Numbered from the stretch's first letter, positions 8,764 through 59,008 are shown. The stretch is 64,000 nucleotides of DNA from Pseudomonadales bacterium (GCA_020632255.1 JACKFX010000003.1:48119-112118); one strand, 5' to 3'. The notes: generated from the sequence alone by a model not told the origin. A program made the numbers and translations.

Positions 8764-8766
8764 TTC

Positions 8767-9113: not shown

Positions 9114-9117
9114 GCGT

Positions 9118-9723: not shown

Positions 9724-9734
9724 TATGAAAAGTG

Positions 9735-9808
9735 TAGCAAGGGAGAGATTTGAACTCTCGACCTTCGGTTTATGAATCCGATGCTCTAACCAACTGAGCT
9801 ACCTTGCC
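9735..9808 (-). tRNA. tRNA with CAU anticodon (elongator Met or lysidine-modified Ile2)
   Basis: Reverse complement GGCAAGG-TA-GCTC-AGTTGGTTA-GAGC-A-TCGGA-TTCATAA-ACCGA-AGGTC-GAGAG-TTCAAAT-CTCTC-CCTTGCT-A folds as a 74-nt cloverleaf with U33 and A37. There is a G1-U72 wobble, and CCA is not encoded. Confidence 0.8.
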
Positions 9809-9850
9809 ATTTGTTGTTAATTGAGGGGGTTCCCTTGACAGAGTGTAATT

Positions 9851-9891
9851 ATACCAGATTTTTGACAGCGATAAAGATCTGATGTATACTA
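9851..9891. promoter_or_regulatory. divergent tRNA promoters: plus-strand TTGACA-17-TATACT, minus-strand extended -10 TGGTATAAT
   Basis: Plus strand: -35 at 9862-9867 and -10 at 9885-9890. The minus-strand extended -10 is the reverse complement of 9851-9859. A leader hairpin CTGTCC-taa-GGACAG followed by a T-run (9897-9922) lies between the plus promoter and tRNA-fMet. Confidence 0.4.
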
Positions 9892-9933
9892 TCATCCTGT
9901 CCTAAGGACAGACTTTTTATTTAAAAGAATACG

Positions 9934-10002
9934 CGCGGGATAGTGTACGGTGCACGTGAGGCTCATAATCTCACAGGCTAGGTTCGACTCCTAGTCCCGC
10001 AA
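9934..10002 (+). tRNA. initiator-type tRNA-fMet (CAU anticodon, C1xA72 mismatch), unusually short (~69 nt)
   Basis: CGCGGGA-TA-GTGT..CAC-G-TGAGG-CTCATAA-TCTCA-CAGG-CTAGG-TTCGACT-CCTAG-TCCCGCA-A. It has the classic CTCATAA anticodon loop, a TTCGACT T-loop, and an unpaired C1/A72 as in bacterial initiator tRNA. The D-arm and variable loop are short. Confidence 0.7.
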
Positions 10003-21355: not shown

Positions 21356-21362
21356 ATATCCC

Positions 21363-22079
21363 TCAATTTTCTATATCTTTTTGTGCAGGTTTTGTTTTTC
21401 TTGTATCTTTGGCGAGCATGCCATCAATAACCTTGAGTGAGATATCGGCATACTGTAAATAACTGAGGTCGTGGGTGACCATCAATACAGTTTTTCCGAG
21501 TGTTTTGGAAAGATTCTTTAGCATTTTCATCAGCTCTTGTCCCGAATCAAAGTCTAGATTTCCAGTGGGTTCATCTGCAATAATGATTTCTGGATCAGTT
21601 ATTAAGGCTCGAGCAAGTGAAACTTTTTGTTGTTGTCCGCTTGAAAGCTCAGATGGATGATGATACGCCCAAGCTTGCATCTTAAACATTTCGAGCGTTT
21701 GCATGGCTTTTTTTAATCTATTCTCTGTATCTTCGCCCAAAAGGAGTAGTGGTAAAGAAACGTTAGTAAGTACATTTACTGATTTTACCCAGTGTGATTG
21801 CTGATACACCATCCCGACATGTTCTTTGCGATACTCCGATCTAGCATCCTCAGTTAGATGAGCGTATATATCACGACCCAGCATGGTTACGGTCCCTGCT
21901 GTCGGTTCTTCTAGTCCCAAAATCGTGTGTAGTAGGGTTGACTTTCCAGAGCCTGATGGACCAAAAATAATCGCAAACTGACCCTGAGAAATACTAAAAT
22001 CGATCCCACGTAACACTGGTACTAGTTGCTGTCCAACTAAAAACGACTTTTTGATTCCCTGTACTTGGATGCTTGTCAT
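21363..22079 (-). CDS. ABC transporter ATP-binding protein (MacB/LolD-like)
   Basis: Walker A GPSGSGKSTLL, signature LSSGQQQKVSLARAL, Walker B IIIADEPTGNLD. Confidence 0.85.
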   Translation of the reverse strand: MTSIQVQGIKKSFLVGQQLVPVLRGIDFSISQGQFAIIFGPSGSGKSTLLHTILGLEEPTAGTVTMLGRDIYAHLTEDARSEYRKEHVGMVYQQSHWVKSVNVLTNVSLPLLLLGEDTENRLKKAMQTLEMFKMQAWAYHHPSELSSGQQQKVSLARALITDPEIIIADEPTGNLDFDSGQELMKMLKNLSKTLGKTVLMVTHDLSYLQYADISLKVIDGMLAKDTRKTKPAQKDIEN

Positions 22080-27300: not shown

Positions 27301-28104
27301 TATCAGCTTTTTTATAACATTGCCATTCGTGATAGATTTGTTCCTGTGATTGATATGGCAAGTGGAGAATGTATCTTAACTGAAGAAATATTTGATGCTC
27401 TTAGAGTAAAAAATGAGTTGATTTTAGAAGTTGTATCTGGGAATCCGACGCCAGAAGAACTTATTGCAGCATTTAAAGAGTCATTTTTCTTGAAAAAGCT
27501 GTATGATGCCCCCGCCTATGTGCTTGAAGGCATTTCGCTTGAACAACATACAATTACTGTACTAAGACAGTTCATGAGATATTTCTTTGAATCTGATTTA
27601 GGAGTGCTTTCAAAAGACGAGTTTTTGGTTCTTTTTGCGTTACATGATATAGGTAAACCATTAGCAAAAGTTATTGCAGGAACATCAACAGCTCAACACA
27701 TTTTTACACAAGCTTTGGTTACACCATTGTTAATGAGGATGGGATTTGATCAACTAACTGTTGATACTATTATTTCTATTGCAAGCCAGGACATTTTAGG
27801 GTTATATATGCAGGGTAAGATAGAGTTGCAGGATGCCGCTAAAAGAATTGTTGATTTATCGTTTGAACTTGGGTTAGATATCAACAAGTTGCTCAAAACA
27901 CTCAAAGTATATTATTTGTGTGATGCAAGTTCTTATACGCAAGATGCTTTAGATGTCTATGGAAAGAAGGGCTTCTTAAACCATCTTTTTAAGTTTGATC
28001 GAGAAAAAGATGCAGAGACTGGTACTCTAGCACTAGAGTCTCAGCAAGAAGTTAAGCTTTTTGAGCTTGAGAACGAAATTAGAAACGTCTTACAGTCAAA
28101 GTAA
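24307..28104 (+). CDS. orphan 1265-aa protein, mostly alpha-helical/acidic, with a C-terminal HD-phosphohydrolase-like motif
   Basis: Uninterrupted 3.8-kb ORF in an AT-rich stretch. Near the C-terminus, ..EQHTITVLRQFMRYFFESDLGVLSKDEFLVLFALHDIGKPLAK.. has H..(28 aa)..HD(I)GK, the core HD-domain signature. No P-loop was seen. Confidence 0.65.
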   Translation: MNEILNYLNIGGAHKEKEKSELHAEEAEAYERYKKLRSQFGVSENQPYNALVKKRTLDISSYIKFHIQETAASTPAETDEASFEDEIASEEGLISHLHSALGEGYKASRQEHVQKLTELGVAYADKVLRVYERGLVFARNGAYKLEFDQETIDSELAKTISYDLDQMYAFLESEQSINFLGKCENFPLAYDRARELFGKNANKLDAQDKKTPALLNLLAGVPQETYQKNLSVIKQYSFLYPPVAEGTFIEFSTPYIEILMNGITESEQMTFNAVMKIGKILGDKKLVGHPIVSKGPKEILASEEDILNELETLEVLIYSLKDNPDLLAAVMEDPSTVYSNLKSLRGVAFWQDFVAILVKLSADGWGVNVEDAYDLLKADRSGKNRVDSICGNIRKSNWANSRLFDAEQREYWLFLQDIRSQERAEQNIISIDEVAMLQSFIRPDTSNLFFNITEIIIRNTEDPFQRKDVFNLLCEQKDGLGFGIHVDEVSAYLDSIDEKTADEVDARFIKVWQHCQNKGILNVVFFPEFLFSVMNRVDELFDANNEPLYLLYFEFLQYVKSLPLDSTSLFKTIQDTVLSKEEPFTELSKLVTDNVDTQFLENLQLYVRVIEIFKEENIKDWKNYHIQFFDYLLQVDDKEEVLADIKTVLANSDIPDFAKIYRVFERVYLQEGVSSYGSRFITQAPDGLSDVVVSPELEKASQRKKAFLLYTDLLRIHVDSNNDSLRAYLRLFSEVQQLIDTLETDGVVSLGEKDKLQLFRVFSKYDGLFGQTKLPQFEFDLGTINPEEIDDILILSLQKLYAQFAVPDGMRLSDRVTEIFARTLGVSSIEELLNRMDTVTKESDTKNRARVEQGSFSFETGDLCTSVNVDECAEILEDGLTAPEFLKEKIARNHLLFSLELLSIGNIEDRDQKQISADLQQELQLGKNDVALVFTEINQVVSDESATKSRAKHEVFDIEQAVGIGSVFGRKGVRTGLSSSELSAILVTPSMRENGQKMYQLFYNIAIRDRFVPVIDMASGECILTEEIFDALRVKNELILEVVSGNPTPEELIAAFKESFFLKKLYDAPAYVLEGISLEQHTITVLRQFMRYFFESDLGVLSKDEFLVLFALHDIGKPLAKVIAGTSTAQHIFTQALVTPLLMRMGFDQLTVDTIISIASQDILGLYMQGKIELQDAAKRIVDLSFELGLDINKLLKTLKVYYLCDASSYTQDALDVYGKKGFLNHLFKFDREKDAETGTLALESQQEVKLFELENEIRNVLQSK

Positions 28105-33735: not shown

Positions 33736-34884
33736 ATGAAAAGCACTCAAAAAAACCTCAAGGTTGCCTTAGTACATGATTACTTGCGGGAGTATGGTGG
33801 TGCCGAGCGTGTAATTGAAGCTCTCCATGAAATGTATCCTGAAGCACCCGTGTACACAGCTTTTTTTGATCCCGATGCGTTAGGTATGCATGCCGTCCGT
33901 TTTGCCAATTGGGATATTCGCGAAACGTGGATTACCAACTTGCCTTTTTATAAAAAATTGTTCTCACCATACCGAATTTTTGCGCCAGCTGCCTTTCAAA
34001 GTCTAGATTTGTCGAACTATGACGTGGTGATTTCATCTTCTAATGCGTATTTTGCTAAAGCGGTGACAACTGAAAGCGGTGGCCATACGGCCGTGCACTT
34101 GTGTTATTGCCACACCCCAGCTCGCTCGTTGTATGGATATACAACTATGACTGACTGGAAGCGAAATCCACTCACGCGCATCGCAGGAACATTGATGAAC
34201 CACTATTTACGAGTTATTGATTTCACGGTTGCTCAACGGGACATCCACTTCATTGCCAATAGTGGAGAAACGCAGCGACGAATTGCAAAGTTCTATCGCA
34301 GAGATAGTACAGTGGTGTTTCCTCCAGTCGATGTTGAAAAACTGTCTCCTGCTGTGCAAAAAGCGCTTGGCAAGAAAAAAGGTGAGTACTACTTATACGT
34401 TGGTCGTTTGGCTGCAAGCAAGCATGTCGATCTGGCGATTGAAGCTTGTACAAAGTTGGGCGTGCCGCTTAAGGTTGTTGGTTCTGGCAAAGGTGAGGAA
34501 TACTTGCGAAGCCTGGCAGGCAAGACAGTTGAGTTTTTGGGTGGAGTTTCCGATGAGGTACTCCATGAGGTGTATGCCAATGCAAAAGCATTAGTATTTC
34601 CTGCAGAAGATGAAGACTTTGGTATTGTTCCGATTGAAGCCATGGGGCACGGGGTACCGGTGATTGCACATCGATCGGGTGGGCCTCGAGAGACAGTCTT
34701 AGAAGGTAGAACGGGAATGTTCTTCAATGAGCTGACTGTTGATGGTATGGCTAAGGCAATCACAGCTTTTGAAAAGCAAGCGAAAACATTTGATCGCACA
34801 AAGATTTATGAACATGCTCTCAGTTTCCGGAAAGAGCGATTTCAAAAAGAGATTTCAGATTTAGTGGAAAAAACTATTTCTTAG
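33736..34884 (+). CDS. glycosyltransferase family 4 (GT-B, group 1)
   Basis: ..EDEDFGIVPIEAMGHGVPVIAHRSGGPRETV.. matches the GT4 E-x7-E region. Confidence 0.75.
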   Translation: MKSTQKNLKVALVHDYLREYGGAERVIEALHEMYPEAPVYTAFFDPDALGMHAVRFANWDIRETWITNLPFYKKLFSPYRIFAPAAFQSLDLSNYDVVISSSNAYFAKAVTTESGGHTAVHLCYCHTPARSLYGYTTMTDWKRNPLTRIAGTLMNHYLRVIDFTVAQRDIHFIANSGETQRRIAKFYRRDSTVVFPPVDVEKLSPAVQKALGKKKGEYYLYVGRLAASKHVDLAIEACTKLGVPLKVVGSGKGEEYLRSLAGKTVEFLGGVSDEVLHEVYANAKALVFPAEDEDFGIVPIEAMGHGVPVIAHRSGGPRETVLEGRTGMFFNELTVDGMAKAITAFEKQAKTFDRTKIYEHALSFRKERFQKEISDLVEKTIS

Positions 34885-36289
34885 CGATGGTCACTAAGAC
34901 CACGGTATTTGGACTAAGATGAACGTTGGTGACGAGTGTGCCATCGCTGACGCTGGCTGCTGTCGATTGGAGTTGGCCGTTATGGAACTCTCGGGTAACA
35001 GTGTAACTACCACTTGGCATATCGGTGAGGGTTATTGGCACGGCTTCAGTATGTTTCCCGTAAACATCAAAGTTTGAGAGAACAATTTGAATGTCGCCTT
35101 GGTTATTTTTGGCAGCAAGAGCCTTGACCCAACTACCTTTTCCAAGCAGTTGAAGGCGCTGGTTTCCAATTTTATCGAGAAGTTTGAGGGCATTGTAGCG
35201 GGGTTTGGCGGTAGCGCCAAAGTCATTGTGGGTGAGAAGTCCCCAGCGGCCCCAGAGTTTTTCTCCTTTAGGATCTTTTCCATCTTGGATTTCAAATACG
35301 AAAGCTCGCTCAACGACGCCAACCATTTCGATAGCTCCAGCCACTGTATGCGCAGCCCCGTAGTTATTGTCGTAGCCAGAGTGGTTTTCGCTGTCATGGC
35401 CCCACTCGGTGATATGAAGTTCAAGAGATGGCTCAAGCGTTGGATATGCTTTGAGCCAGGTGCGAACTTCGGTCATGTCGTCACGGTAACGGTCGATACT
35501 GTGATCGTAGCGATGCCAGCTGAAGAAGTCGAAGCGAACGCGATTGTTGACGGCATTTTTTGCTAACGCATCGAACCAATTTTTGTAGAGGGCGGTGGTC
35601 GCGGCGCCGCCGAATTTGTATGGTTTCACCCCAGTAGCACGTGCGGCGCCGCGTGCCGACGCGTTGTAGAGGGTAATATAGTTTCGATCTCCGTAGTATT
35701 TCCAGCCGCCAAAAAGATCTGGTTCATTCCAGACTTCATAGTACACGTTGGCGGTGCCACGGGCTCCACTAATGTGCTCGATGGTGCGTTGGACTACAAG
35801 TTCCCAGTCAGCGTAATTTTGTGGAGGATCGATGATACTGCCCGATGAAATAGCCGGAGGCATGTACGAGAGGGATATGTATGGTGTGGCTCCAACGGCA
35901 GCAATGTCATCAAGTAGCCCATCAAGCTTGCTAAAGTCGAAGGTTAAATTGCCTGGGGAGCCACCAACGATATCATAAAAGTCATAAATATGGTCGATGC
36001 GAATGTATGTTGGGTGGAGGGCCCGAACTTGATTAGTAATTGGCTGTATTCGCCAGGCATGATCTTCACCGCCTTGGGCTAGGTTCCGCCAAGGACGAGG
36101 CATGACGCCAACCACTTTTGTCGCAGATACTTTAATATTGGCTGGTTCACCAGATGCTTCTGAAAAAAATTCTCGCACAACTTTGATTTGAAGGGCGCCA
36201 ACAAGTGCGACAACAACCAAGCCAAGGACTATCATTCCTTGAAAGATAAGTTTCAACCGATTTCGTCGTCTATATTTTGTTACGCGCAT
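34874..36289 (-). CDS. membrane-anchored clan GH-A glycoside hydrolase (GH5/GH39-like)
   Basis: N-terminal TM helix. ..NVYYEVWNEPD.. (acid/base NEP) and ..LHITEWG.. (nucleophile TE) are positioned as in (beta/alpha)8 GH-A enzymes. Confidence 0.55.
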   Translation of the reverse strand: MRVTKYRRRNRLKLIFQGMIVLGLVVVALVGALQIKVVREFFSEASGEPANIKVSATKVVGVMPRPWRNLAQGGEDHAWRIQPITNQVRALHPTYIRIDHIYDFYDIVGGSPGNLTFDFSKLDGLLDDIAAVGATPYISLSYMPPAISSGSIIDPPQNYADWELVVQRTIEHISGARGTANVYYEVWNEPDLFGGWKYYGDRNYITLYNASARGAARATGVKPYKFGGAATTALYKNWFDALAKNAVNNRVRFDFFSWHRYDHSIDRYRDDMTEVRTWLKAYPTLEPSLELHITEWGHDSENHSGYDNNYGAAHTVAGAIEMVGVVERAFVFEIQDGKDPKGEKLWGRWGLLTHNDFGATAKPRYNALKLLDKIGNQRLQLLGKGSWVKALAAKNNQGDIQIVLSNFDVYGKHTEAVPITLTDMPSGSYTVTREFHNGQLQSTAASVSDGTLVTNVHLSPNTVVLVTIAKK

Positions 36290-36383: not shown

Positions 36384-36418
36384 TTGACATTTTAGCAATC
36401 TCAAACTATTATTGCTAA
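36384..36418 (+). promoter_or_regulatory. TTGACA -35 box plus CIRCE-like operator TTAGCAATC-N9-TATTGCTAA upstream of hrcA
   Basis: A 9-N9-9 inverted repeat (8/9 complementary) at 36392-36418. It lies inside the N-terminal extension of the ORF-track hrcA call, which argues for the downstream start. Confidence 0.65.
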
Positions 36419-37958: not shown

Positions 37959-39881
37959 ATGGCAGATACAGGAAAAATTATCGGAATTGACCTCGGAACC
38001 ACCAACTCAGCAATTGCTGTGATGGAGGGTGGAACAGCTAAGATTGTTCCGACTGCTGAAGGTCGCAACACCTTTCCATCTATTGTTTCATTCAAAGGCG
38101 ATGATGTTTCTGTCGGAGACGTCGCTAAGCGTCAAATGGTGTTAAATCCACAGAAGACGGTTAACTCTGTTAAGCGTTTTATGGGTGGAAAGCTCAAAGA
38201 CAAAGCCGTTAAAGAAGCTATTAAACATGTTTCTTACGAAGTTACTGAAGGTAAAGACGGTATGGCTGTGGTCAAAATTGATGGCAAAGAATTAACTCCA
38301 CAAGAAATTTCTGCAAAAATTTTGGCCAAAGCCAAAGCAGATGCCGAAAGCTATTTGGGCGGAGAAGTCAGCCGTGCGGTTATCACTGTGCCGGCCTATT
38401 TTAATGACGCGCAGCGCCAAGCTACCAAACAAGCAGGTGAAATCGCAGGTCTCAAAGTTGAACGTATCGTCAACGAACCCACAGCCGCTGCGCTCGCCTA
38501 CGGTCTCGAAAAGAAAGGCAGCGAAGTGATTGCTGTCTACGACCTCGGTGGTGGTACCTTTGATATCTCAATTCTCGATATCGGTGATGGTGTGTTTGAA
38601 GTGAAATCAACCAACGGTGATACCTTCCTTGGTGGTGACGACTTCGACAGCAAGATCATTGATTGGATTGTTGCCGAGTTCAAGAAGGATCAAGGTAAAG
38701 ATCTTTCTAAGGATCCACAAGCATTGCAGCGTATCAAAGATGCCGCTGAAAAAGCTAAGATTGAACTTTCAAGCGCCACTTCAAGCGAAATTAACCAACC
38801 TTTCATTACCCAAGGTGACGACGGCCAGCCTTTGCACCTTACTTTGACGCTTACCCGAGCCAAGTTAGAAGAATTGGTTGATGACCTCATTAAACGCTCA
38901 TTTGAGCCAGTTAAAAAAGCACTTAGTGACGCAGGCATGAAGCCAAGTGACATCAGTGACGTCGTCCTCGTTGGAGGTATGACTCGTATGCCTAAGATCC
39001 AAAAAGAAGTTGAAAAATTCTTTGGTAAAGCTCCTCACAAGGGTGTGAACCCAGATGAAGTTGTGGCCATCGGTGCTGCAATTCAAGCTGGTGTGATCGG
39101 CGGAGATGTCCAAGATGTGGTTTTACTTGACGTGACCCCATTAACGCTTGGGCTTGAGACCTTAGGTGGTGTTCGCACTCCACTTATAGAGCGCAACACA
39201 ACTATTCCTACCAGCAAGTCACAAGTTTTCTCAACTGCTGCAGATAATCAAACCTCTGTTGAAATCAACGTGCTCCAGGGTGAGCGCGAGATGGCAGCTG
39301 ACAACAAGTCACTCGGAAAGTTCATTCTCGATGGTATTCCACCAGCACGCCGCGGTGTTCCTCAAGTTGAAGTGACTTTCGACATCGATAGTAACGGTAT
39401 TTTAAATGTAACTGCCAAGGATAAATCTACCGGCAAGGAACAAAAGATTTCTATCCAGAACTCTACGAACCTTTCTGATGATGAAGTCGAAAAGATGAAA
39501 GCAGATGCAGAAAAGCACGCTGAAGAAGACAAAAAGAAGAAAGAAACTGTCGAAGCTCGCAATCACGCTAACTCAGTTGCTTTTGAAATCGAAAAACAAC
39601 TCGAGGAGTACGGTGACAAGCTTGAAGAAGCTGACAAGAAGAGTATCCAAGAAGATGTTACCAAGCTCAAAGAACTGGCTGCAAAGGAAGATGTTTCTAA
39701 GGAAGAAATCGACAAAGCCGTCGACGCAACCTTTAAGTCAGCTCAAAAAATTGGCGAAGTTATGCAAAAAGCACAACAGGCCGAAGCCGATGCGAAGCCT
39801 GCTAGCTCAGATGCAGAAGATACAAAGTCCAAAAAATCAGACAAAGGCGCCGTCGAAGAAGGAGAAGTGGTCAATGAGTAA
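37959..39881 (+). CDS. dnaK: chaperone DnaK (Hsp70)
   Basis: [14 protein letters not shown].., DLGGGTFD and [11 protein letters not shown]. Confidence 0.95.
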
Positions 39882-40004: not shown

Positions 40005-40034
40005 ACAGCCCTCGGCCTCACGGCCGGGGGCTGT
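40005..40034. repeat. GC-rich compound hairpin ACAGCCC-t-CGGCC-tcac-GGCCG-g-GGGCTGT
   Basis: Read directly. It shares the CGGCC/GGCCG core with the 19-mer palindromes. No T-run follows. Confidence 0.5.
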
Positions 40035-40231
40035 TCCTAACGATGTTCGAATACAAGATACTCATTTTCAATACATAACAAGTATGTATTGCATTATTAT
40101 AAGACATTAGATAAAATACTATAAGTAACTTATTGACTTTATGGTACACTTTTTAGTGTTTGAAAAAAAAAGAATAATACCTAGTATATAGTATATTACT
40201 GTGTATACATAAAGCGTTTTGAGGAACATAC

Positions 40232-41866
40232 ATGATTACATTAGACGGCCAAACCACTAGTGAGAGATCAAGGTTTGAGCTTTTCAACAAATCAAGAAGG
40301 TATAGAGCAGCATTGGGTCTTGTCTCCATTGCACTCCTTACAGCTTGTGGGTCAGTTAGTAGTCCCGAACCCCCTGCAGCTACCTATCCAGTTGCAAATG
40401 TGGATGAAACGCCAAGTGATGCAGGAGACGATCCCCCAGACCATTTGGATTTGCCTCCGACATTTGTACCGGCTACGCCTGAACAATTGCCATCTCCAGT
40501 AGTAATTGACATGAGTTCTGTAGAGGGTCCTCCAAAAAATCCAACCCGAGAATATTTTAGTGCATTTGAGGGATTTGATAAACTGTCACCTGTGTCGCAA
40601 AGCTTTTTTTTAAATTCAAAAGAAGCCGCTGCTTTTTTACTCGGCGACCCGTCATCTGTTGCCATTGAAATTATTCCTGAATTAGTTGGGGAAGAACCGT
40701 TTGATCATCAAATATATATTGTTGGAGAATTTCCTGTGGATTTAACGTATAACAAGGGTGATCGAGGCGTTCCCACAGAAGATGGATATTTTATTTTTTC
40801 TAATATTGCCATAGATTCCGATGGCAATTCAGTTCAGCTAAAATTTTTTACTCTTGAGATGTACAGTGATGGTAAACTCACTGGAAAATACATACCCGGA
40901 AGTACCCAAGTAGAATGGGTAAGTTTTGACGGAAAGGAGAAATATTTTTTTGATGAAATCTCTGGACAATTTCTTTCTGCCGAACGCATTGCCTATCTAA
41001 CCGATCTTCGTGCTGCACAGTTAGTCGCATCCGATGCTACTCGCATAGAAAAAACTGAAGCTGGGGATGGATGTGCATATAATGAAAAAGATGAAGTGGT
41101 TGCTACGTTTGATTTGCTCTCAAATTCTTGGATAGAAACTTCTTCTGAGACTTCGGGCGCACTATTTGGACCAGAACAACCTGTCGATTCCAAAATTGAA
41201 GGTGTAGAAGAGTATCCCACGACTGTAATAATCCAGAATTTTGAAACTGGCTGGAGTACTACTTCTATGCAAGAATTCCTTGGAGTATTCCCTGAAGCGA
41301 AAATTCCCACTCCAGATGAGTTTTTCGAAATGACTAGCAGTATAATCAATGGCTACCTTCCCGCTACAGCTTTAGAGGCACCAATCGGTTTCAATAATGT
41401 GGTTAATGGCATCGGTGGTGTATTTCCCCTAGGAGAATTTAGCATCACTAAGCAAGAAGCGACAATTTCGGGAGTGGTAGTTGGCACATACGTTCGAACG
41501 AATACCGGAGATTTGGCACTCTTTGTTTTCCAGTTGGTCACAGATCGACAGGGCGACGTTTTTAGTGCAGTTCCTAAGGTACAACTTGGAAAAATAGGAC
41601 CAAACGGTAGCATAGAGAATTTCTTTATTACTAGTACAGACCATGCTAGTAAAGCAGCACTTCTCTCTGGAATGCCTGCATTTTTTCTTGGCTTAAATCT
41701 TCAAGACCCTATTAATGAAGTTACCAGGGAAGCATATGAATCATATATGGCACAAACAGGACCATCAGGGGGATACGACCTCAATAGTGTTTCTACATGG
41801 AATCAAGCTACGACTGGTTTAAATGTCCAGGTGATTTTGCTTCCCCCAGATTACAACCAGCCTTAA
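40232..41866 (+). CDS. hypothetical lipoprotein (544 aa)
   Basis: The N-terminus ..RRYRAALGLVSIALLTACGSVSS has a signal peptide with an L-T-A-C lipobox. An acidic low-complexity linker follows, then a beta-rich body. No known domain. Confidence 0.5.
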   Translation: MITLDGQTTSERSRFELFNKSRRYRAALGLVSIALLTACGSVSSPEPPAATYPVANVDETPSDAGDDPPDHLDLPPTFVPATPEQLPSPVVIDMSSVEGPPKNPTREYFSAFEGFDKLSPVSQSFFLNSKEAAAFLLGDPSSVAIEIIPELVGEEPFDHQIYIVGEFPVDLTYNKGDRGVPTEDGYFIFSNIAIDSDGNSVQLKFFTLEMYSDGKLTGKYIPGSTQVEWVSFDGKEKYFFDEISGQFLSAERIAYLTDLRAAQLVASDATRIEKTEAGDGCAYNEKDEVVATFDLLSNSWIETSSETSGALFGPEQPVDSKIEGVEEYPTTVIIQNFETGWSTTSMQEFLGVFPEAKIPTPDEFFEMTSSIINGYLPATALEAPIGFNNVVNGIGGVFPLGEFSITKQEATISGVVVGTYVRTNTGDLALFVFQLVTDRQGDVFSAVPKVQLGKIGPNGSIENFFITSTDHASKAALLSGMPAFFLGLNLQDPINEVTREAYESYMAQTGPSGGYDLNSVSTWNQATTGLNVQVILLPPDYNQP

Positions 41867-41996
41867 ATTGGTAACTTAGGCTTGCGCGTGATACAACTTA
41901 GATTTGTAACCTGAAAGTAGAGCGATCATAGAATTCCTATTTATTACTGAGTAGTTACGCTTGCAATCATGACAGATGAAGCCCTATACTTAGGTA

Positions 41997-42572
41997 GTGA
42001 TGAAGTCTAAAAGAATTCTGTTCTACACTCTTTTCTTGTTAGGATCCATTATCTTAATGGGATATTTTGTGCTTTCAAGATATGGTTCTGCTTCTGTCTT
42101 CCTTTCTTCACGTTTGCCTTTTAGCAAAGAATCAAATTTGGGTGATCCTCCGTTTAGAGAACAAATTGACGCAAAGGGTAATTATCGCATTGAGATCGAT
42201 GCTCAGGTTATTGAAGTAACGAGAGAAGCGCCGTCACCAGATATGCCCGAACAATCATTTTTAGTCTTGCAAAGTAAGGGCGTAAAAAAGCCATTTAAAG
42301 TTGGTTTAGGACCAGATATTCAACATCGCTCTTTTCGGAATGAGAAATTACTGCAAGAAACCACCCAAGAAGGTGTGATTGTTAGTAGTACAATTCCGGT
42401 TACTGAAATAGCTTCTCTGTTGAATCCCGGTGATTCAATACTGATTCAGCTTGGAGTTATTTCGGAACACGCATCTTTTGTTGAGAGTTGGAAAGCATTT
42501 TTTAACTCTAATAATGGGGAGATAACTATTAATTATAATTTCGTAAGATCTATAACTCTGTTGCCATCATGA
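41997..42572 (+). CDS. hypothetical N-terminally membrane-anchored protein
   Basis: TM helix ILFYTLFLLGSIILMGYFVLS. Its stop overlaps the next start by 4 bp (ATGA). Confidence 0.4.
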   Translation: MMKSKRILFYTLFLLGSIILMGYFVLSRYGSASVFLSSRLPFSKESNLGDPPFREQIDAKGNYRIEIDAQVIEVTREAPSPDMPEQSFLVLQSKGVKKPFKVGLGPDIQHRSFRNEKLLQETTQEGVIVSSTIPVTEIASLLNPGDSILIQLGVISEHASFVESWKAFFNSNNGEITINYNFVRSITLLPS

Positions 42573-45500
42573 TTAAAAGATTTCTACTCTTATCTTTCTT
42601 ACTTGGTCTCTATGTGACGGCGGGGTATCTTATTATACTACAAGGAGTAGTGAAACCTGTGATGGCAACCCAATGTTTGGAGCCTGGGTGTTGTGGGTAT
42701 TATTTGAGATGGTATCAATGGCAATGTATTGAGACAGGGGCGGATACGGGTCGCTGTGCAGCTTTGGGTGAGCCACTGCATTACTTTTGTCCCACTGATG
42801 GCACAGACTGGACTACTGCGGATGAGTGTTTCTTCCATTGTCCAGTGACCTGTGGCACCGCTTGCTATAGTGATTGGGCGTCGGAGTGTGTGATCGAGCA
42901 TCACGACGAACCGTGTGTAAATCCAGATCCAAACACCTGTACTGCATCGTATGCAGCAATTCAGTGCTCAGAGCAGCAAGGGGCAAATGCTTGTGTTGGT
43001 AGTACAGCTCCTCTAGATACTCGCGGTTGTTGGGTGCTTGGTGCCCCAAGTCCGACTCCGACTCCAGGAGTGGATCCCTCTCCCACGCCAAATCCCGGCG
43101 ATTGTGATGGCAACTGGTATGGATGCACTGGAGCAACTACGTGCGCTCGGTTTGATACGCAAGCTCTTTGCCAAGCAGGAGCAAGTCAATGTGCTTGTGG
43201 CGAATGTGCTTGTCAAACTGATAAGGGCAAAATTGCATTTACTTTTTTTGAGGACTTAAACCAAAATGGAGTTTGGGACTTCGATCAAAATGAGAGACGA
43301 ATTCAACCCGACAATTCATGTCCTGTAGATGGCTCGTTCGTCGTTAGTGGTGTTCAACTTTGGTTTGATAGTAGCCAACTTACTCCGACCTGCAATGTTC
43401 TTAATACTGAGTTCGAGGGCACCACTTGCACTGGGAGCCAATCCTGTGGAGCAAATACTTGTAATAGTTGGGGCCCCGAATGGCAGGCGTATGGAGACAC
43501 ATGTTTTGCCGAACCCGAATACTGTAGTGCCTGTAACGCAGGGGGAATAAACTGCATTCCAGGAACTATTGAACAAGGTTTAGTTTGTTCGCAACCTCCT
43601 TTCGTATACTGCGATCCATACGTCGGTCCAAATATGAGAAATGGTTATGTATATATCAAGCAATCGCAAACAGGCGCCCGAAATGTACAAGTAGTGACTC
43701 CTCCAGGTTGGTTTGTCAGTCCTGGTACTCATGGTGGAAGCAATAATTTTACTGTGAACGTTACTACTAATTACAACAGAATTCGTTGCGAAGCAGGACT
43801 ACAAGTTATTGGACTCGTTAGAGATTATAATAAACAATGTACTGTGAATTTGTTCAGAGATAGTATTCCTTCTGATGAATCAACACTCGCCACCGTTTGG
43901 GCACTTTCTGGAAAACCAGGAGCAGATCCGGTCAACTTGGTTATTGGAAAATCAGATTATTCACAGATTTTAGACGAGAACAATCAACTGTATGTGCCTC
44001 CAGGCACCACTCACTACGAAATTTCGGGCAAGCATTACTACATTTGGCATCCACCCATCGATTTGATAAATGGCTCCTTCGAAACTGGTACAACAGCAAA
44101 CTGGACAGGGGGTGGAGCGCTTTCAGCCACTGGTTTTGCAGTGATAGATAGTAACATGTATCCGGCAGATGGCTTGGATGGGCGATTCTATCTCAAGATG
44201 CAGCGGGGAAGTGCTGGAGACGCCTATGTAGTTTCGGACTGGATAGATGTTGGAAGACAGCTGGGCGGCCAATCATTTACTCTAAACTTGATGATTCGAG
44301 GTCAAAATAATTCTGGCACACAAACCGTGAGTAACATTAGTTTGCAAGCAGATGATAATTATCAAGCATTTATTGGAAATGTTACAACCATTCCAACTAG
44401 TTGGACAACGTATACTAGAACAGTTACTTTCCCAGCCAATAACGCCCAGACAAAAATGAGAGTAGTGCTGAGAGTACCCGATAGCACAGCTGCTGTGTAC
44501 TATGATGGTATTTCTGTCGAGAATGCTGATGGTGAGGGTGGATGCACTACAGGCGATAATGTAGCATGTCAAAGTGACACCGTTATTTCGGGTCTGCCTG
44601 TGGGTGACTATAAGTTGCATTGCGAAGTTCCAACTGCTCCCCAGGGCTGTTCTGGAAATCCTAACTGTATTTATGAGGGAGGATCGTTATCTTGTCCCGG
44701 CTTAGAATCATGTAGTTTGCAAGATAATGCCGATCTTGAAGTGACGTGTTCACCTCAGTGTGGACAAACTGGTTGTAATTTCGACGATTCCGGTATACCT
44801 AACCCATCAAATATTCAACCACCAACTCAAAATATGACTACTAATCCGAGCAACCCTCTAATAACTTGGTCAGAATCGAGCACCTTAACCGATTACTGGA
44901 CCCTGATTATCTATAACAGCGGATTGCAATACACCAATGCGCAACTTAATGCAATTGCCGAAGATTGTGGGAACTACACTGGCTCGACCTCTCAACCTCT
45001 ATGTAGACAAATCTCATATGGTGCATTTGACACAAACCACGATGGAACTTTAGATTTACAACCTAGCTATCCGTACGATCCTCAAATTCTTAAAAAGAAT
45101 AACCTACGCATTGCCCTTAGAGGAGTTAATGATACGTGCTATGGGTATGGTGGTAACCAAAATTCTCCATGGATACACAGCACCCTCTTACTTACCGCAA
45201 ATGTAACTGGTACTATTTACGATGGTGAAGGTACGCAGGGGGTTACCCTCTGCACTGGGTTTCAAAACCCAGTCTCATTTCCCCCAACTACTACGCGTAT
45301 AGTGAGCGCTGCCTCTGGGGGGATTCCAGATTCAAGTTCGTTAAGTACATACACTATTTTTAACGTGCCATACTTGCCCGACCTTTCTTGGGGCACTGGC
45401 ACCGATATTATCCTAGACATAAACAACTCAGATTCAAATAACAGTTGGGCCTGTAACTGTCCTGCAAATGGGGATCCATACTCCTGTAGGTACACAAATA

Positions 45501-46504
45501 TTTTAACTCCGTCAACCGGACCAAATGTTAATTTTTGGGTACAACAAGAATTAGCAATCGATCTAGATAATGGACCATGGTGGCAAACATGGGGCGGTAT
45601 GGTGTATGCGGCTAGTGGGTCAGTGATTTCTAGAATTCCTCAGCCTTGTATCGATGATTCAACTGGTTACTGTCGGTCATTCATAGTAGCCAAAGACATT
45701 GATCAAACGACAGATTCTGCTGGTATTCCAATGTCTGGCTCTGGTGTGTTCTCTTCTGGTGATACTTCGGGATACTACACCGATCGTGCAACTCAGCAAG
45801 TAGCCGAAGGCACGTATCATGATCAACTTACACAAGAAAATTATGACTACTTTATTCGTGAAATCTTGATCTCGGAGTACACTGATACTGTTCCTGCAAG
45901 TGTGGAAACTTCTAGCGATATCTTTGATACCGATTTTACCATCGATGCAGATGATAATACGCGTATTTACTACGCAGCCGGTGATGTGACTATCGATCCT
46001 ACTGCCACCATTTCTACCTCTGATTTGCCAGCTGGTGTCGATAAAGCACTTGTGTTGATTAATGGCAACTTAACTGTTCGTGATAGTGATGATATCGAAC
46101 AGGTAATTAATGTTGACGATGGTGATTTCTTAGGATTTATCGTCAATGGCAACATCACTTTTGAGGCATCAGTCGGATTTGATAAAACAATGACAAACTT
46201 AGTACCTGTTGATGCAAATGCTAACGTTGAAGGGTTATTTGTTGCCGATGGCTCACTCATAGTTGATGGCTATGATGCGCTAGGACAGCTTCAGCTTAGT
46301 GACCGCAAGTTTATCGGAGCAGGTACTTTCGTTGGCTTCTCTGGGGTAGCACTGAATAGGGATTTCGAGAACAGTGTCGATCCGCTCACTCGATCGATAA
46401 ATAACCTCGATCCAGTTTCTACTTTTGTCTACCGCCCAGACTTAGTCGAGAGTCTGCCACGATTTATGCACACTCCGGGACTTGTCTGGCAGGAAGTAAA
46501 TTAG
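42569..46504 (+). CDS. giant Cys-rich secreted/anchored protein (1311 aa) with Pro/Thr linker and CBM4/9-like carbohydrate-binding domain
   Basis: N-terminal hydrophobic anchor. About 60 Cys in the first ~330 aa (C-x-x-C / CGxC patterns). PSPTPTPGVDPSPTPNPGDC linker at ~43048-43110. ..INGSFETGTTANWTGGG..RFYLKMQRGSAGDAYVVSDWIDV..YYDGISVENA (44069-44525) resembles a CBM_4_9 jelly-roll. Confidence 0.65.
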   Translation: MIKRFLLLSFLLGLYVTAGYLIILQGVVKPVMATQCLEPGCCGYYLRWYQWQCIETGADTGRCAALGEPLHYFCPTDGTDWTTADECFFHCPVTCGTACYSDWASECVIEHHDEPCVNPDPNTCTASYAAIQCSEQQGANACVGSTAPLDTRGCWVLGAPSPTPTPGVDPSPTPNPGDCDGNWYGCTGATTCARFDTQALCQAGASQCACGECACQTDKGKIAFTFFEDLNQNGVWDFDQNERRIQPDNSCPVDGSFVVSGVQLWFDSSQLTPTCNVLNTEFEGTTCTGSQSCGANTCNSWGPEWQAYGDTCFAEPEYCSACNAGGINCIPGTIEQGLVCSQPPFVYCDPYVGPNMRNGYVYIKQSQTGARNVQVVTPPGWFVSPGTHGGSNNFTVNVTTNYNRIRCEAGLQVIGLVRDYNKQCTVNLFRDSIPSDESTLATVWALSGKPGADPVNLVIGKSDYSQILDENNQLYVPPGTTHYEISGKHYYIWHPPIDLINGSFETGTTANWTGGGALSATGFAVIDSNMYPADGLDGRFYLKMQRGSAGDAYVVSDWIDVGRQLGGQSFTLNLMIRGQNNSGTQTVSNISLQADDNYQAFIGNVTTIPTSWTTYTRTVTFPANNAQTKMRVVLRVPDSTAAVYYDGISVENADGEGGCTTGDNVACQSDTVISGLPVGDYKLHCEVPTAPQGCSGNPNCIYEGGSLSCPGLESCSLQDNADLEVTCSPQCGQTGCNFDDSGIPNPSNIQPPTQNMTTNPSNPLITWSESSTLTDYWTLIIYNSGLQYTNAQLNAIAEDCGNYTGSTSQPLCRQISYGAFDTNHDGTLDLQPSYPYDPQILKKNNLRIALRGVNDTCYGYGGNQNSPWIHSTLLLTANVTGTIYDGEGTQGVTLCTGFQNPVSFPPTTTRIVSAASGGIPDSSSLSTYTIFNVPYLPDLSWGTGTDIILDINNSDSNNSWACNCPANGDPYSCRYTNILTPSTGPNVNFWVQQELAIDLDNGPWWQTWGGMVYAASGSVISRIPQPCIDDSTGYCRSFIVAKDIDQTTDSAGIPMSGSGVFSSGDTSGYYTDRATQQVAEGTYHDQLTQENYDYFIREILISEYTDTVPASVETSSDIFDTDFTIDADDNTRIYYAAGDVTIDPTATISTSDLPAGVDKALVLINGNLTVRDSDDIEQVINVDDGDFLGFIVNGNITFEASVGFDKTMTNLVPVDANANVEGLFVADGSLIVDGYDALGQLQLSDRKFIGAGTFVGFSGVALNRDFENSVDPLTRSINNLDPVSTFVYRPDLVESLPRFMHTPGLVWQEVN

Positions 46505-46520
46505 TCTTTCGTGAATAGGT

Positions 46521-47183
46521 ATGACAAAAACTGCAGAAACAGCTCAAAAAAATCTAGCTCGAGCTTCACTTACCAAATTAGCTTTTTTAACTGTGTGTGC
46601 GGTCTTGGTAGTGGGGCTGGTGAAAAACTGGATGGAGCGACGTTCATTATCTTCGTCAGATTTTGAGAACAGTTTCGTTGAACAGATTTTTCGTGGTTCT
46701 GGTCCAGTTGATTCGGTGGAGGCTGCCGAAATATTTTCAAGTGTATTGCCGAGCTTGTATACCAATACCTTTTTTGGTGATGGCCAAACTGATGATGGAT
46801 ATAGACTTATCTTTGCAGGCTTTGTGGGTGAAGAACGTGCTGGAGCAGGTCAGAATGAAGGTCGAATATATCTAAGTTTGTATCCGTATTTATATGATCA
46901 GCAGGTTCCTGTCTTTTTGGATATCACCGAAGCAAAACAAGAAGTCACCGTTGTAGAGAGAGGTGAATCAATTACTCAGCCTTTCGATAAGGCTCGCTTA
47001 AAGATGAGCGGACGCCGTCCAGCGGTACTTACTTTCTTTTTTTCAAATGATCAAGTCACTGAATTCACTTACCTCAAAATGAATCTTGAGAAGCTAAGTG
47101 ACAAAATGCTTTTTAATACTAATAAAGACATTTCTGATATAATTATGCACCCAGAGTTTATTACTACAATTCAACTTTTCTAG
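46521..47183 (+). CDS. hypothetical membrane-anchored protein
   Basis: TM helix LAFLTVCAVLVVGLV. No domain recognised. Confidence 0.4.
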   Translation: MTKTAETAQKNLARASLTKLAFLTVCAVLVVGLVKNWMERRSLSSSDFENSFVEQIFRGSGPVDSVEAAEIFSSVLPSLYTNTFFGDGQTDDGYRLIFAGFVGEERAGAGQNEGRIYLSLYPYLYDQQVPVFLDITEAKQEVTVVERGESITQPFDKARLKMSGRRPAVLTFFFSNDQVTEFTYLKMNLEKLSDKMLFNTNKDISDIIMHPEFITTIQLF

Positions 47184-47266: not shown

Positions 47267-48136
47267 ATGTCAACCAAACGAGATTACTACGAAATTTTAG
47301 GGGTTACCAAGTCGGTAACCGATAAGGAATTAAAGTCTGCTTATCGAAAGATGGCACTCAAGTGGCACCCCGACAAGAATCCAGATAAAAAAGCTGAAGC
47401 AGAAGCTAAGTTTAAAGAAATCAACGAGGCCTATCAGGTGCTTTCGGACAGTAAAAAACGTCAAGCATATGACCAGTTTGGTCATGCGGCCTTCGATCCT
47501 GCCAGTGGTATGGGCGGTATGGGTGGAAATCCATTCGGAGGTGGTTTTGGCCAAGGTCCATTTACCTATACCTACACATCGAATGGCCAGAGTCCATTTG
47601 GAAATGCTGATTTTGGAGATCCATTCGAAATTTTTGAACAGTTTTTCGGTGGGGGGTTTGGTCGTGCTGCGCAACGTCGACCTCGCTACTCACTTCAAAT
47701 TGAGTTTATGGAGGCTGTGAACGGAGTAGAGAAGGAAGTAGAGATCGAAGGCAAAAAGCACACCATCAAAGTGCCTGCAGGGGCAAATGACGGTACACGC
47801 ATTCGTTTTAGTGGGTTTGATGTTACCATCGATGTTAAAACGCACGAACGGTTTAAGCGTGATGGGTATGATGTTTTTGTTGATCACCCTATTTCTTATT
47901 CTTTAGCAGTTTTAGGTGGGGTAACAGAAGTTGAAACATTGCACAGTACATTAAAGTTAAAGGTTCGACCTGGAACAACATCACACTCATTAGTAAGACT
48001 TCGCGGGGAAGGCATTCAGTACCTTCGGGGAACTGGAAAAGGTGACTTATATGTGCGCTTAGTTATTGAAGTTCCAGAAAAACTGAATAGACAACAGCGA
48101 AAAGCGGTAGAAAAGATTGGGGACGTTGGTCTCTAG
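47267..48136 (+). CDS. J-domain co-chaperone, class B (DnaJ/CbpA-like, no zinc-finger repeats)
   Basis: ..[22 protein letters not shown] (HPD motif), a G/F-rich linker and C-terminal beta-domains. No CxxCxGxG repeats. Confidence 0.75.
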
Positions 48137-57379: not shown

Positions 57380-59008
57380 TTAGGCTGTATGCATATCAAG
57401 GGTGCCTTGCAGCACGGGCATGCCATTTTCGTTGACTAACATATAGCCAATTTCTATTGGGGTGTTTGGCTCAGTAGGTGTTACGTCTATCGTAATAGCA
57501 TCCCACTTTTGTAGTGCAGAAAAAGTTATTGATGGAATGTTGTCTTGATCATCTTTATTCGAGTTTGCAGTAGATATTATTCTAGTTTGAGTGTCTTGAA
57601 AACTTTGTATCATGAAATACAGTTTTTTCTCAGAATCGTATGGCCAAACTGCGTCGGTCACCATAAAGTTAAGTTGAACTTTATTTGGTCTACCAACTTC
57701 TAGTTTCTGTAGTTTGGTTTCTCCAATGGGTTCAGTGCTTCTAGAAATAGTAATGTATTTAGGGAGTTCCCCTTCTATGGAGTTCTGCAAATCTTGAGCA
57801 ATCTTAGTAAGTTGTAATACCAAATTGTCATCATCATTTGTAAATAAGTCACTCCTCTGCTCTGGCATTTCTCTAACTTCCCTATAGTACTTCGATTTTG
57901 CAATTGCATAGCGAGTAGAGTCCATCTCTTGTAATTCTTTTTTTATTTCATCCAGAACCCTTTTTTTTGTTTCAAGATCATCTGCTAACTCGACTTTTTT
58001 TCTAAATTTCTCTAGTAAGGTTATACAGTATTTTTTATTTTCTAACGTAGTCTTAAGTGTATTCAGCGAATCAAAGGAAAATGTATTTCTTAAAAAGCTG
58101 CTATAGGTACCTTTTCCCCATTTTTTGTCAATTACTTGCGAAACTGCAGGCAAAAGTGAAAAATCTGTTCTTGCTCTAGTGATTAGAGCAAGAAGTTCTT
58201 TTTTTTCATTGTCGTCGTAGATACTCAGAAGTAAGTCAAAAATATCACCAGCATATTGAGTTAACTCTAGATTGAGTTTGATCTCCCCATCTGTATCTTC
58301 CAGAACAGTACAGTGTTGAGCCGATACATTTGAACCATTTGTGAAGTGCATAGTGTCGGTGGGTTTGAAACCAAATTCTTCGAGAATTTCTTTTTTTCTA
58401 ACTAAACTAGCACTGAATTCTTCATGCTTTGATAATTCATCGATAAATAGATTTGAAAAATATGCAAGATACCCATGTTCGAACAGTCTAGCCTGGATGG
58501 CCGTTTCTGCTGTCGCATGCTGTAAACCAATCCGAGCAGTTTTTACAGATTCATTTTTGACCAACAGTACTTCTTTGCCCATGGTGAGGAGCACTAATCT
58601 GAAAATTTCTCTGACTACATCAATTGGCAATACATCTGTATGAATTGGTATAGCATTTGTTCGTTCTGCTAATGAGAGTACATTTTTATATCGGATGAAA
58701 TCTGATTTTTCTTGTAGTTCATCAAGATCCTCATACATTTTTTGTTGTTGATCACCATCTATAAAAGTAAATTCGGGAAATTCAATTTGTTCTACTCCGT
58801 AATCAGCAAAGAGTTCTAAAATAAATTTTTTAGCTTTTTCGAGTGCAAGTACAAAAAGTGGATCAGGATTTTCTAGCTCATATTTTTTAGTGACTTCATT
58901 TCTTATTGTATTGAGTTGTGAGAGTTCTTTTCCTATATTACCTGCATCTGGATGAATTCCACCAGATTCATGGCTGCTTTGTGAAATAATATCGTATATT
59001 TTGTGCAT
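57380..59008 (-). CDS. orphan 542-aa protein (AT-rich, no recognisable domain)
   Basis: Long uninterrupted ORF in an AT-rich stretch, with K/E/D-rich helical composition. Confidence 0.55.
   Translation of the reverse strand: MHKIYDIISQSSHESGGIHPDAGNIGKELSQLNTIRNEVTKKYELENPDPLFVLALEKAKKFILELFADYGVEQIEFPEFTFIDGDQQQKMYEDLDELQEKSDFIRYKNVLSLAERTNAIPIHTDVLPIDVVREIFRLVLLTMGKEVLLVKNESVKTARIGLQHATAETAIQARLFEHGYLAYFSNLFIDELSKHEEFSASLVRKKEILEEFGFKPTDTMHFTNGSNVSAQHCTVLEDTDGEIKLNLELTQYAGDIFDLLLSIYDDNEKKELLALITRARTDFSLLPAVSQVIDKKWGKGTYSSFLRNTFSFDSLNTLKTTLENKKYCITLLEKFRKKVELADDLETKKRVLDEIKKELQEMDSTRYAIAKSKYYREVREMPEQRSDLFTNDDDNLVLQLTKIAQDLQNSIEGELPKYITISRSTEPIGETKLQKLEVGRPNKVQLNFMVTDAVWPYDSEKKLYFMIQSFQDTQTRIISTANSNKDDQDNIPSITFSALQKWDAITIDVTPTEPNTPIEIGYMLVNENGMPVLQGTLDMHTA

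Follow-up and report, generated by a model that had tools for sequence, protein, structure and literature searches.

Cultured bacteria belonging to the candidate phyla radiation (CPR), or Patescibacteria, live attached to host cells, and to our knowledge the molecules by which most of this radiation recognizes its hosts have not been described. In cultured Saccharibacteria, host binding is mediated by type IV pili (T4P) and by large, lectin-like "PilX" proteins that lack a PilD-type signal, one of which, PilX2, is needed if hosts are to be bound efficiently (PMC11623550). Epibiotic growth has been shown to require T4P genes, which are essential for it (PMC10633639), and the attached way of life depends on T4P in the few species that are tractable. 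ComZ, a protein of the competence pilus tip, is dominated by a triangular β-solenoid and binds the neighboring pilin PilA2 (PMC6561018); the same solenoid has been reported in all cyanobacterial PilX minor pilins and has been proposed to act as a tip plug replacing PilY1 (preprint, bioRxiv 10.64898/2026.02.12.705559). Here we describe a cluster of four genes, O1 to O4, in a 64,000-nucleotide (nt) stretch of DNA deposited as Pseudomonadales bacterium (GCA_020632255.1 JACKFX010000003.1:48119-112118), referred to below at its full length as the window. The third gene encodes a protein of 1311 amino acids (aa), here called the giant, whose C-terminal domain defines a large family that lacks a Pfam or NCBIfam model. 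With slightly better than even confidence, we regard the cluster as a relocated and remodeled T4P minor-pilin-block module with a role in attachment to host-cell or environmental glycans.

RESULTS

It is the C-terminal domain, here called the WWQ domain, rather than the carbohydrate-binding module (CBM) or the Cys-rich head, that is the defining part of the giant. When 1.84 billion representative proteins (clusters at 50% identity) were searched exhaustively with a profile of the C-terminal 572 aa, the result was a family of at least 807 clusters at an E value of ≤1e-3, with 193 clusters at ≤1e-30. The match nearly always reaches the C terminus of the family protein, and the parts N-terminal to it range from 0 to approximately 1,300 aa. 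The core domain extends over 290 to 320 aa from near a WWQ sequence to the C-terminal end; in the window protein it comprises 308 aa and ends with WQEVN. A terminal W[QKRE]E[VTIS]N motif is located exactly at the end in 86 of 153 representatives and within the last 16 residues in 127 of them. A small-x-small site directly before a Cys-rich mature end was found in 99 of 104 family N termini, and a prepilin motif was found in 1 of the 104. The shortest members (P0100 and P0162, 320 aa) consist of a signal peptide and the WWQ domain only. No Pfam model lies over the WWQ domain in 37 diverse members, the heads of which have only occasional CBM_4_9, TSP_1, fn3, or Big_2 matches, and no coverage of the domain was found in NCBIfam or Pfam; the literature searched, coverage of which was incomplete, contained no description of the family or of a linkage to pili.

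The gene neighborhoods of this family point to T4P. The nearest outgroups of the giant are P0013, P0010, and P0026; the mature start AAQCWEPGCCG is common to P0010 and P0013, P0026 has the related start AAQCTE, and the head of P0010 contains a CBM_4_9 match. The gene order in these outgroups is a 644- to 764-aa protein, a 188- to 211-aa protein with an N-terminal transmembrane (TM) segment, the giant, and a 171- to 181-aa canonical prepilin (G/FTLIELLV). This block sits inside complete T4P loci encoding PilM, three or four further pseudopilins, the prepilin peptidase PilD, a major pilin, and PilC, with a faint PilO match in one locus and a PilX_N protein in one; PilT and PilB are present in L094 and L095, the two loci whose contigs extend that far.

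The same neighbors recur across 80 further metagenome loci of the family, for which statistics were compiled by simple open reading frame (ORF) calling and a prepilin regular expression, a procedure with at least one false positive (L001). The downstream neighbor is a same-strand canonical prepilin of 160 to 210 aa in 33 of 76 distinct family genes and a protein with an N-terminal TM segment in another 21, and the upstream neighbor is a same-strand protein of the latter kind, of 150 to 260 aa, in 30 of 54, often with an overlap of 4 to 10 nt. Prepilin genes, usually four or five, are located within eight genes of the family gene in 43 of the 80 cases. A hidden Markov model (HMM) made from the globular parts of the pilins at the +1 position matched 46 genes, 41 of which lie at +1 and 4 at +2 of a WWQ gene. 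Of the 164 genes with a prepilin motif in the loci examined, it matches only 45. The +1 pilins are a separate, dedicated pilin family, and this tight and specific gene coupling is the strongest evidence that the WWQ protein and the dedicated pilin work together.

Two further arrangements of WWQ genes were observed. In L028, L030, L031, L034, and L040, two tandem WWQ genes (approximately 590 to 680 aa and 437 to 467 aa) are followed by a dedicated prepilin gene, which suggests that the two are paralogous or exchangeable caps. A minimal 320-aa member (L096, 1949-3297; L097, 4951-6299) has its start overlapped by a 129-aa gene and adjoins an oppositely oriented gene for a PMT-family glycosyltransferase; this locus lies outside any pilus locus.

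A structural model was made of aa 740 to 1311 of the giant by using AlphaFold2 with an input alignment of 26 diverse family members. The model, with a mean predicted local distance difference test (pLDDT) score of 87.6 and a predicted template modeling (pTM) score of 0.72, consists of two β-sandwich domains and a β-rich C-terminal domain, and the last 8 residues are unstructured in this monomer model (pLDDT of <50). The WWQ domain is predicted to fold as a triangular β-solenoid of the ice-binding-protein type, as is found in ComZ and PilX. The best structural matches of the predicted solenoid were the DUF3494 ice-binding proteins and ComZ, not the pectate-lyase-type helices. At the sequence level, Pfam and PDB profile searches did not connect the solenoid with any solved structure, with DUF3494, or with ComZ.

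Close relatives of the giant are few. Only four close relatives, with 47 to 55% identity over the full length, were found among 5.8 billion proteins, and a scan of one genome per species placed the giant in [quoted passage not shown] and "uncultured Patescibacteria group bacterium." The closest genomes are those of Candidatus Pacebacteria/Patescibacteria; we take the lineage to be CPR/Pacebacteria and assume an epibiont-type lifestyle from this taxonomy. Conservation of the four-gene order in related genomes had been suggested as a check by a previous sequence-only reading of the window, and the order is kept in every relative found. All recovered loci have a variable O1 slot followed by O2, the giant, O4, and dnaJ, and dnaK precedes them on every contig that is long enough upstream. 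The order O1-O2-O3-O4 between dnaK and dnaJ was seen in three Pacebacteria lineages, one of which adds a methyltransferase gene after dnaK. Between lineages, the flanking proteins encoded by hrcA, dnaK, dnaJ, nusA, and infB are 78 to 91% identical and that encoded by grpE is 66 to 69% identical, whereas the identities are 26 to 32% for O1, 24 to 34% for O2, 50 to 57% for O3, and 27 to 37% for O4. The gene order is thus stable, but the sequences of the cluster change at a far higher rate than those around it, a pattern to be expected of proteins exposed at the surface.

Within the giant (Table 1), the degree of conservation differs strongly between domains. In comparisons of orthologs, the C-terminal approximately 310 aa are the best-conserved domain (70%), and the last eight residues reach 94%, whereas the CBM has the lowest mean pairwise identity of all domains (31.5%). 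This module matches CBM_4_9 (PF02018) with 31.6 bits against a gathering cutoff of 25.9 (E value of 2.4e-7), and sugar binding is its predicted function; the match is present in three of the four orthologs, and the family profile matches the CBM4 of laminarinase 16A (1gui) with an E value of 2e-4. The sequence-only reading had named a CBM4/9-like jelly-roll, a Pro/Thr hinge, and a Cys-rich N-terminal region with about 60 Cys. The jelly-roll passed the profile check, a Pro/Thr stretch is indeed present at aa 158 to 176, and the richness in Cys is real; the total is 56 Cys, with 35 of them within aa 36 to 348, and a second cluster of 10 lies outside the N-terminal region at aa 659 to 736. In an alignment of four full-length homologs, 48 of the 56 Cys residues are invariant, including 31 of the 37 in aa 35 to 424. 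Oxidative folding with approximately 28 possible disulfides would be compatible with this composition. A motif of the head, FTFFEDxNxNGVWD, resembles SdrD-B/Cna-B-type Ca-binding β-sandwiches by eye only, and no Pfam match backs this resemblance. Since the N terminus of the giant fits the family pattern of a small-x-small site and a Cys-rich mature end, its hydrophobic segment most probably serves as a Sec signal peptide that is cleaved off (...KPVMA/TQC) and not as a TM anchor. Because the gene order is kept in all relatives and the CBM passes its profile, the two outcomes that would have spoken against the sequence-only reading, a scattering of the genes in relatives and failure of the CBM-like region in profile searches, were both absent.

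The other three proteins had been described from the sequence as a 544-aa lipobox lipoprotein (O1) and two single-TM proteins (O2 and O4), and this description is borne out. O1 has an n-region and an h-region followed by an L-T-A-C pattern with the Cys at residue 39; its sequence ...RRYRAALGLVSIALLTAC/GS fits the lipobox [LVI][ASTVI][GAS]C, AAAC or LSAC occupies the corresponding position in the orthologs, and O1 is predicted from this pattern to be a lipoprotein. No other protein of the cluster evolves as fast; the orthologs of O1, 26 to 32% identical, are 536 or 772 aa long. Relative to L001, L002 and L008 carry in the O1 slot a 1170-bp insertion with a 324-aa lipoprotein-like paralog (8335-9309) that is 78 to 88% identical to the C-terminal half of the adjoining 536-aa O1; this is a strain-level variation within the lineage that has the additional methyltransferase gene, present on some contigs of one population and missing from others. 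A similarity between this paralog and the solenoid of the giant (BLAST E value of 0.006) was not confirmed by the family profile and was taken as chance. Homology of O1 to the 644- to 764-aa proteins in the same slot of the pilus loci was likewise rejected (hhalign probability of 3% and no Pfam match).

In O2, O3, and O4, hydrophobic segments are limited to a single one at the N terminus. O2 is homologous to the 188- to 211-aa gene product encoded directly 5' of the giant in L009, L094, and L095 (hhalign probability of 98.1%, E value of 6e-14, 143 columns) and has no prepilin motif. The possibility that all small upstream TM proteins of the wider family are homologous was also considered; an iterated search with the ectodomain alone recruited the closest subfamily only, and a pooled profile matched the TM helix only. 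O4 is predicted to consist of a TM helix (aa 15 to 41), a disordered linker, and an OB-like β-barrel with a long helix, and its family is confined to a narrow clade of 5 clusters. O4 and O2 can be aligned with an hhalign probability of 82% (E value of 1e-5, 96 columns), and they appear to be diverged paralogs with an OB-like ectodomain, the fold model having been made of O4. O4 is probably a lineage-specific, diverged O2 paralog, and it occupies the slot which holds the dedicated prepilin gene in relatives. The dedicated pilin gene is lost from the locus of this lineage, where two bitopic proteins, apparently OB-like paralogs of each other, are encoded on either side of the giant. A class III signal peptide was not found in O1 to O4, either by regular expression or as an N_methyl match in Pfam.

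The sequence-only reading had described four co-directional genes, and all four ORFs were recovered on the plus strand where it had placed them. The ATGA overlap of the O2 stop codon and the O3 start codon (42569-42572) was confirmed by direct reading; the spacer between O3 and O4 is 16 nt long and not 17 bp as had been given, and O1 and O2 are separated by 130 nt. O2 starts with GTG, immediately followed by an ATG at 42000. Pfam and NCBIfam scans of O1 to O4 gave CBM_4_9 in O3 as the sole match. The cluster sits between dnaK and dnaJ, with hrcA and grpE upstream and nusA, infB, and rpsO downstream. A promoter-like site, TTGAAA-16-TAGTAT, was read in the AT-rich stretch before O1; since a promoter consensus scan found sites in this region to be no more numerous than in shuffled sequences, it is no more than a hint at transcription of the cluster from a promoter of its own. 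The sole CIRCE (controlling inverted repeat of chaperone expression)-like element, TTAGCAATC-N9-ATTGCTAA, lies upstream of hrcA. Heat shock control of the cluster through HrcA and CIRCE was considered and is unsupported: with a hairpin and a promoter-like stretch before O1 and the CIRCE-like element only 5' of hrcA, there is no positive evidence for membership in the heat shock operon, although read-through is possible.

Approximately 4 kb 5' of the cluster, on the opposite strand, lies a gene for a glycoside hydrolase of the GH39 family that is anchored in the membrane at its N terminus. Wherever a relative offers sufficient upstream sequence (L001, L002, and L007), this gene is conserved; in the window, L001, and L007, it is located just upstream of hrcA, in L001 with a 309-aa ORF between the two.

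Elsewhere in the window, a second candidate surface system is encoded on the minus strand. It comprises an ABC ATPase, a MacB/FtsX-type permease, and a 1681-aa protein that combines a signal peptide with FN3, Ig-like, and purple-acid-phosphatase-N-type domains, the gene for which overlaps the end of the permease gene by 8 nt. ORFs of 1265, 451, and 542 aa gave no Pfam match at an E value of ≤0.001. Two divergent tRNA-Met(CAT) genes are separated by approximately 125 nt; the second, with a short length of 69 nt, has a much lower score than the first (45 versus 72 bits).

Table 1. Positions in the window of the cluster genes, the parts of the giant, and other features
Feature	Position	Strand	Description	Basis
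O1	40232-41866	+	544 aa, predicted lipoprotein	ORF call, sequence pattern
O2	41997-42572	+	191 aa, bitopic: N-terminal TM helix and β-rich ectodomain	
O3 (giant)	42569-46504	+	1311 aa, probably Sec secreted	
O4	46521-47183	+	220 aa, bitopic	
Giant, aa 1-34	42569-42670	+	Probable Sec signal peptide: MIKR, hydrophobic core, VMA/TQC	
Giant, aa 35-424	42671-43840	+	Putatively disulfide-rich head, 37 Cys, Pro/Thr stretch at aa 158-176	
Giant, aa 500-639	44066-44485	+	CBM_4_9 carbohydrate-binding jelly-roll	
Giant, aa 653-740	44525-44788	+	Second Cys-rich module, 10 Cys, 8 invariant	
Giant, aa 741-1000	44789-45568	+	Two predicted β-sandwich (FN3-like) stalk domains	
Giant, aa 1001-1311	45569-46501	+	WWQ...WQEVN domain, family defining, predicted triangular β-solenoid	
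Giant, aa 1304-1311	46478-46501	+	C-terminal tail GLVWQEVN, most conserved segment	
Intergenic region 3' of dnaK	40006-40187	+	GC-rich hairpin (40006-40033) without a T-tract, then AT-rich DNA	
Promoter-like site	40160-40187		TTGAAA-16-TAGTAT	Sequence reading
CIRCE-like element	36392-36418		Upstream of hrcA	
dnaK	37959-39881		Upstream flank of the cluster	
dnaJ	47267-48136		Downstream flank of the cluster	
GH39-family gene	34874-36289	-	Glycoside hydrolase, N-terminal membrane anchor	
Second candidate surface system	14371-22079	-	Three genes listed below	
ABC ATPase	21363-22079	-		
MacB/FtsX-type permease	19409-21355	-		
Signal-peptide protein	14371-19416	-	1681 aa	
ORF	24307-28104	+	1265 aa	
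ORF	12043-13398	+	451 aa	
ORF	57380-59008	-	542 aa	
tRNA-Met(CAT) pair	9734-10002		Both genes	
Second tRNA-Met(CAT)	9934-10002		69 nt	

DISCUSSION

The sequence-only reading had proposed that the cluster is an extracellular glycan-binding or adhesion system. Secretion signals, the CBM, the 48 invariant Cys residues, and fast evolution are all consistent with that part of the proposal; the "machine" that it proposed, however, is probably not free-standing. Because the solenoid family is usually encoded within T4P minor-pilin loci, the cluster is better seen as a remodeled member of a pilus-linked module. As a member of such a module, the giant would be exported by Sec, would be oxidatively folded, and would be built like a fibrillar adhesin. 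Its variable head, made up of the Cys-rich modules and a fast-evolving CBM4_9 lectin domain, would bind the ligand atop the two FN3-like stalk domains, and the conserved solenoid with its flexible WQEVN tail would form the docking end, the tail being a candidate docking peptide. Since the solenoid and tail are encoded beside a dedicated prepilin in most relatives, their probable place is at the tip of the pilus, as a cap or a passenger. The docking logic would be that of PilY1/PilC and the fold that of the solenoid of the tip pilins ComZ and PilX. The translationally coupled O2 would be the conserved membrane-side partner, either a holder or an assembly factor; O4, as an O2 paralog, would have replaced the dedicated pilin gene in this Pacebacteria lineage; and O1 would be a fast-evolving accessory lipoprotein. 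Physical docking to a pilin or to O2 and O4, as well as a role in host attachment, is what we infer for the giant from these considerations.

Several observations weigh against this reading. The 64-kb window contains no gene with a prepilin motif and no member of the dedicated pilin family as judged by HMM, and no T4P machinery genes were seen in it. O4 does not take the place of the missing pilin in structural terms: it has no profile similarity to the +1 pilins, and its predicted fold is not the pilin lollipop. Approximately 45% of the family loci, many of them on short contigs, have no prepilin gene nearby, and the neighbor statistics come from the simple gene calling described above. The minimal 320-aa member is found outside any pilus locus and keeps the invariant tail, and therefore the partner of the tail need not be a pilin. 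The likeness to ComZ is one of a common solenoid fold that also occurs in ice-binding proteins and does not extend to the sequence. In ComZ (Thermus thermophilus; PDB 6qvi) and cyanobacterial PilX, moreover, the solenoid is inserted between the last two strands of a pilin domain with an N-terminal pilin helix, whereas in the giant it is the C-terminal domain after FN3-like domains, the signal is of the Sec type, and there is no pilin domain. Lastly, the secretion and cleavage, disulfides, glycan binding, and localization that this reading calls for are predictions from sequence. For the lineage of the window itself, we put a giant that is still pilus borne, with the pilin encoded elsewhere, at a little below an even chance; tethering to the surface via O2 and O4 is slightly less probable than that, and some other arrangement has a small share.

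An alternative is a surface adhesin that is independent of pili, an explanation that is possible but clearly less probable than the one we favor. Here the giant would be held on the envelope by O2, O4, and perhaps O1 as a fixed glycan-binding fibril, and the solenoid and tail would be a general envelope-docking module. The window without a pilin or T4P gene would then be unsurprising, as would be the pilin slot held by an O2 paralog with a predicted nonpilin fold, the position of the giant between membrane-anchored partners, one of them translationally coupled, and the many family loci without a nearby prepilin gene; in line with this explanation, the solenoid and tail, together with a small gene that overlaps from upstream, are retained where the family occurs outside pilus loci. 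However, the closest outgroups, which have the same head architecture, lie in complete T4P loci, and a pilin could be encoded elsewhere in the genome. The solenoid is also 70% conserved, compared with 24 to 37% for O2 and O4, which would be unexpected if these two were its sole partners.

A broader form of the pilus-linked reading, which we advance only tentatively, is that WWQ-solenoid proteins are general, as-yet-unrecognized T4P tip adhesins in many CPR lineages, a "split ComZ" whose equivalent is made as a single chain in ComZ and PilX and which has become uncoupled in this window. The Sec-secreted cap may dock on the dedicated pilin, possibly by inserting its WQEVN tail, and the hypervariable, disulfide-rich lectin heads may set the host range. 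In that case, the window cluster may represent a transition in which the cap has been passed from the pilin to a duplicated OB-fold membrane partner.

A catalytic role was also considered. CBM4/9 modules are typically appended to glycoside hydrolases, and β-solenoids are a common scaffold of polysaccharide lyases. The giant could accordingly be imagined as an extracellular enzyme that degrades or harvests polysaccharides, with the CBM targeting a glycan and the solenoid, like those of pectate lyases or of the depolymerases in phage tailspikes, providing lyase- or hydrolase-like catalysis to open the host envelope or release sugars. The laminarinase CBM as the nearest solved match and the conserved GH39-like gene upstream on the opposite strand would fit such a role. 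We nevertheless consider it improbable: the best structural matches of the solenoid, DUF3494 and ComZ, are nonenzymatic, profile searches of Pfam, NCBIfam, and PDB gave no catalytic family, a strict coupling to a dedicated pilin is unexpected for a free enzyme, and the hrcA, grpE, and dnaK genes separate the GH39 gene from the cluster. About as improbable, and suggested by analogy with ComZ, is a receptor for the uptake of DNA or another polymer, in which the solenoid and its OB-fold partners would capture extracellular DNA at the pilus tip or surface and feed the competence system of an organism unable to make nucleotides, as might be argued from the DNA binding of the solenoid-bearing tip protein ComZ (PMC6561018), from the predicted O4 ectodomain, which is most like OB folds, many of them nucleic acid binding, and from the natural competence and dependence on scavenging of CPR bacteria (PMC10633639; 10.1101/335083).

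This work ties an anonymous cluster to a large family without a Pfam or NCBIfam model and gives that family a signature, namely, the C-terminal solenoid, the terminal WQEVN, a small membrane protein coupled to it, and a pilin dedicated to it, together with variable lectin-like heads. If the family is indeed one of pilus-tip or surface adhesins, host ranges could be predicted from metagenomic sequences by means of this signature, which would also provide a defined set of partners for complex prediction or pulldown experiments, and the family would be an independent example of pilus capping besides PilY1 and ComZ/PilX.

Among described proteins, PilY1/PilC, the tip-associated adhesin of type IVa pili in Pseudomonas, Neisseria, and Myxococcus, is similar to the giant in that it is a large nonpilin with a Sec-type signal encoded in a minor-pilin block. 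A Sec-signal nonpilin in a minor-pilin operon is seen in the nearest outgroups of the giant and in approximately half of the family loci, but not in the window. The shared logic is that of a conserved C-terminal end that docks on minor pilins and a variable N-terminal end that adheres. There is no sequence similarity between the two, and PilY1/PilC has a seven-bladed β-propeller in place of the predicted triangular β-solenoid; the propeller domain (PF05567) gave no Pfam match in the giant at an E value of ≤10. Unlike PilY1/PilC, the giant is extremely Cys rich and has no adjacent pilin gene in the window. With regard to ligands, ComZ binds DNA, whereas the giant carries a CBM. The DUF3494 or type 1 ice-binding proteins (3wp9, 6bg8, and 7bwx) are found in a different gene context, and the giant has no sign of ice binding; the DUF3494 model gave no Pfam match at an E value of ≤10 in the 4 orthologs and none at ≤0.001 in 37 other members.

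By analogy, the closest functional counterpart within the CPR is PilX1/PilX2 of Nanosynbacter lyticus TM7x, which likewise is the largest protein of its pilus locus, lacks a PilD-type signal, and has a lectin-like domain. As judged from their description, however, PilX1 and PilX2 are pilin-like lollipops with a C-terminal jelly-roll or β-propeller, whereas the giant has the reverse polarity and is probably from a different family. The large extracellular proteins with many Cys residues that have been reported from CPR genomes, for example, those of Peribacteria, share with the giant a signal peptide, strain variability, and a proposed role in attachment; compared by description, these reports differ from ours in having no family definition, conserved C-terminal domain, or link to pili (PMC4736985). 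In summary, the giant is not a pilin, a PilY1/PilC protein, a ComZ-type pilin, or a DUF3494 member, and by function it is best grouped with the pilus-associated or surface adhesins.

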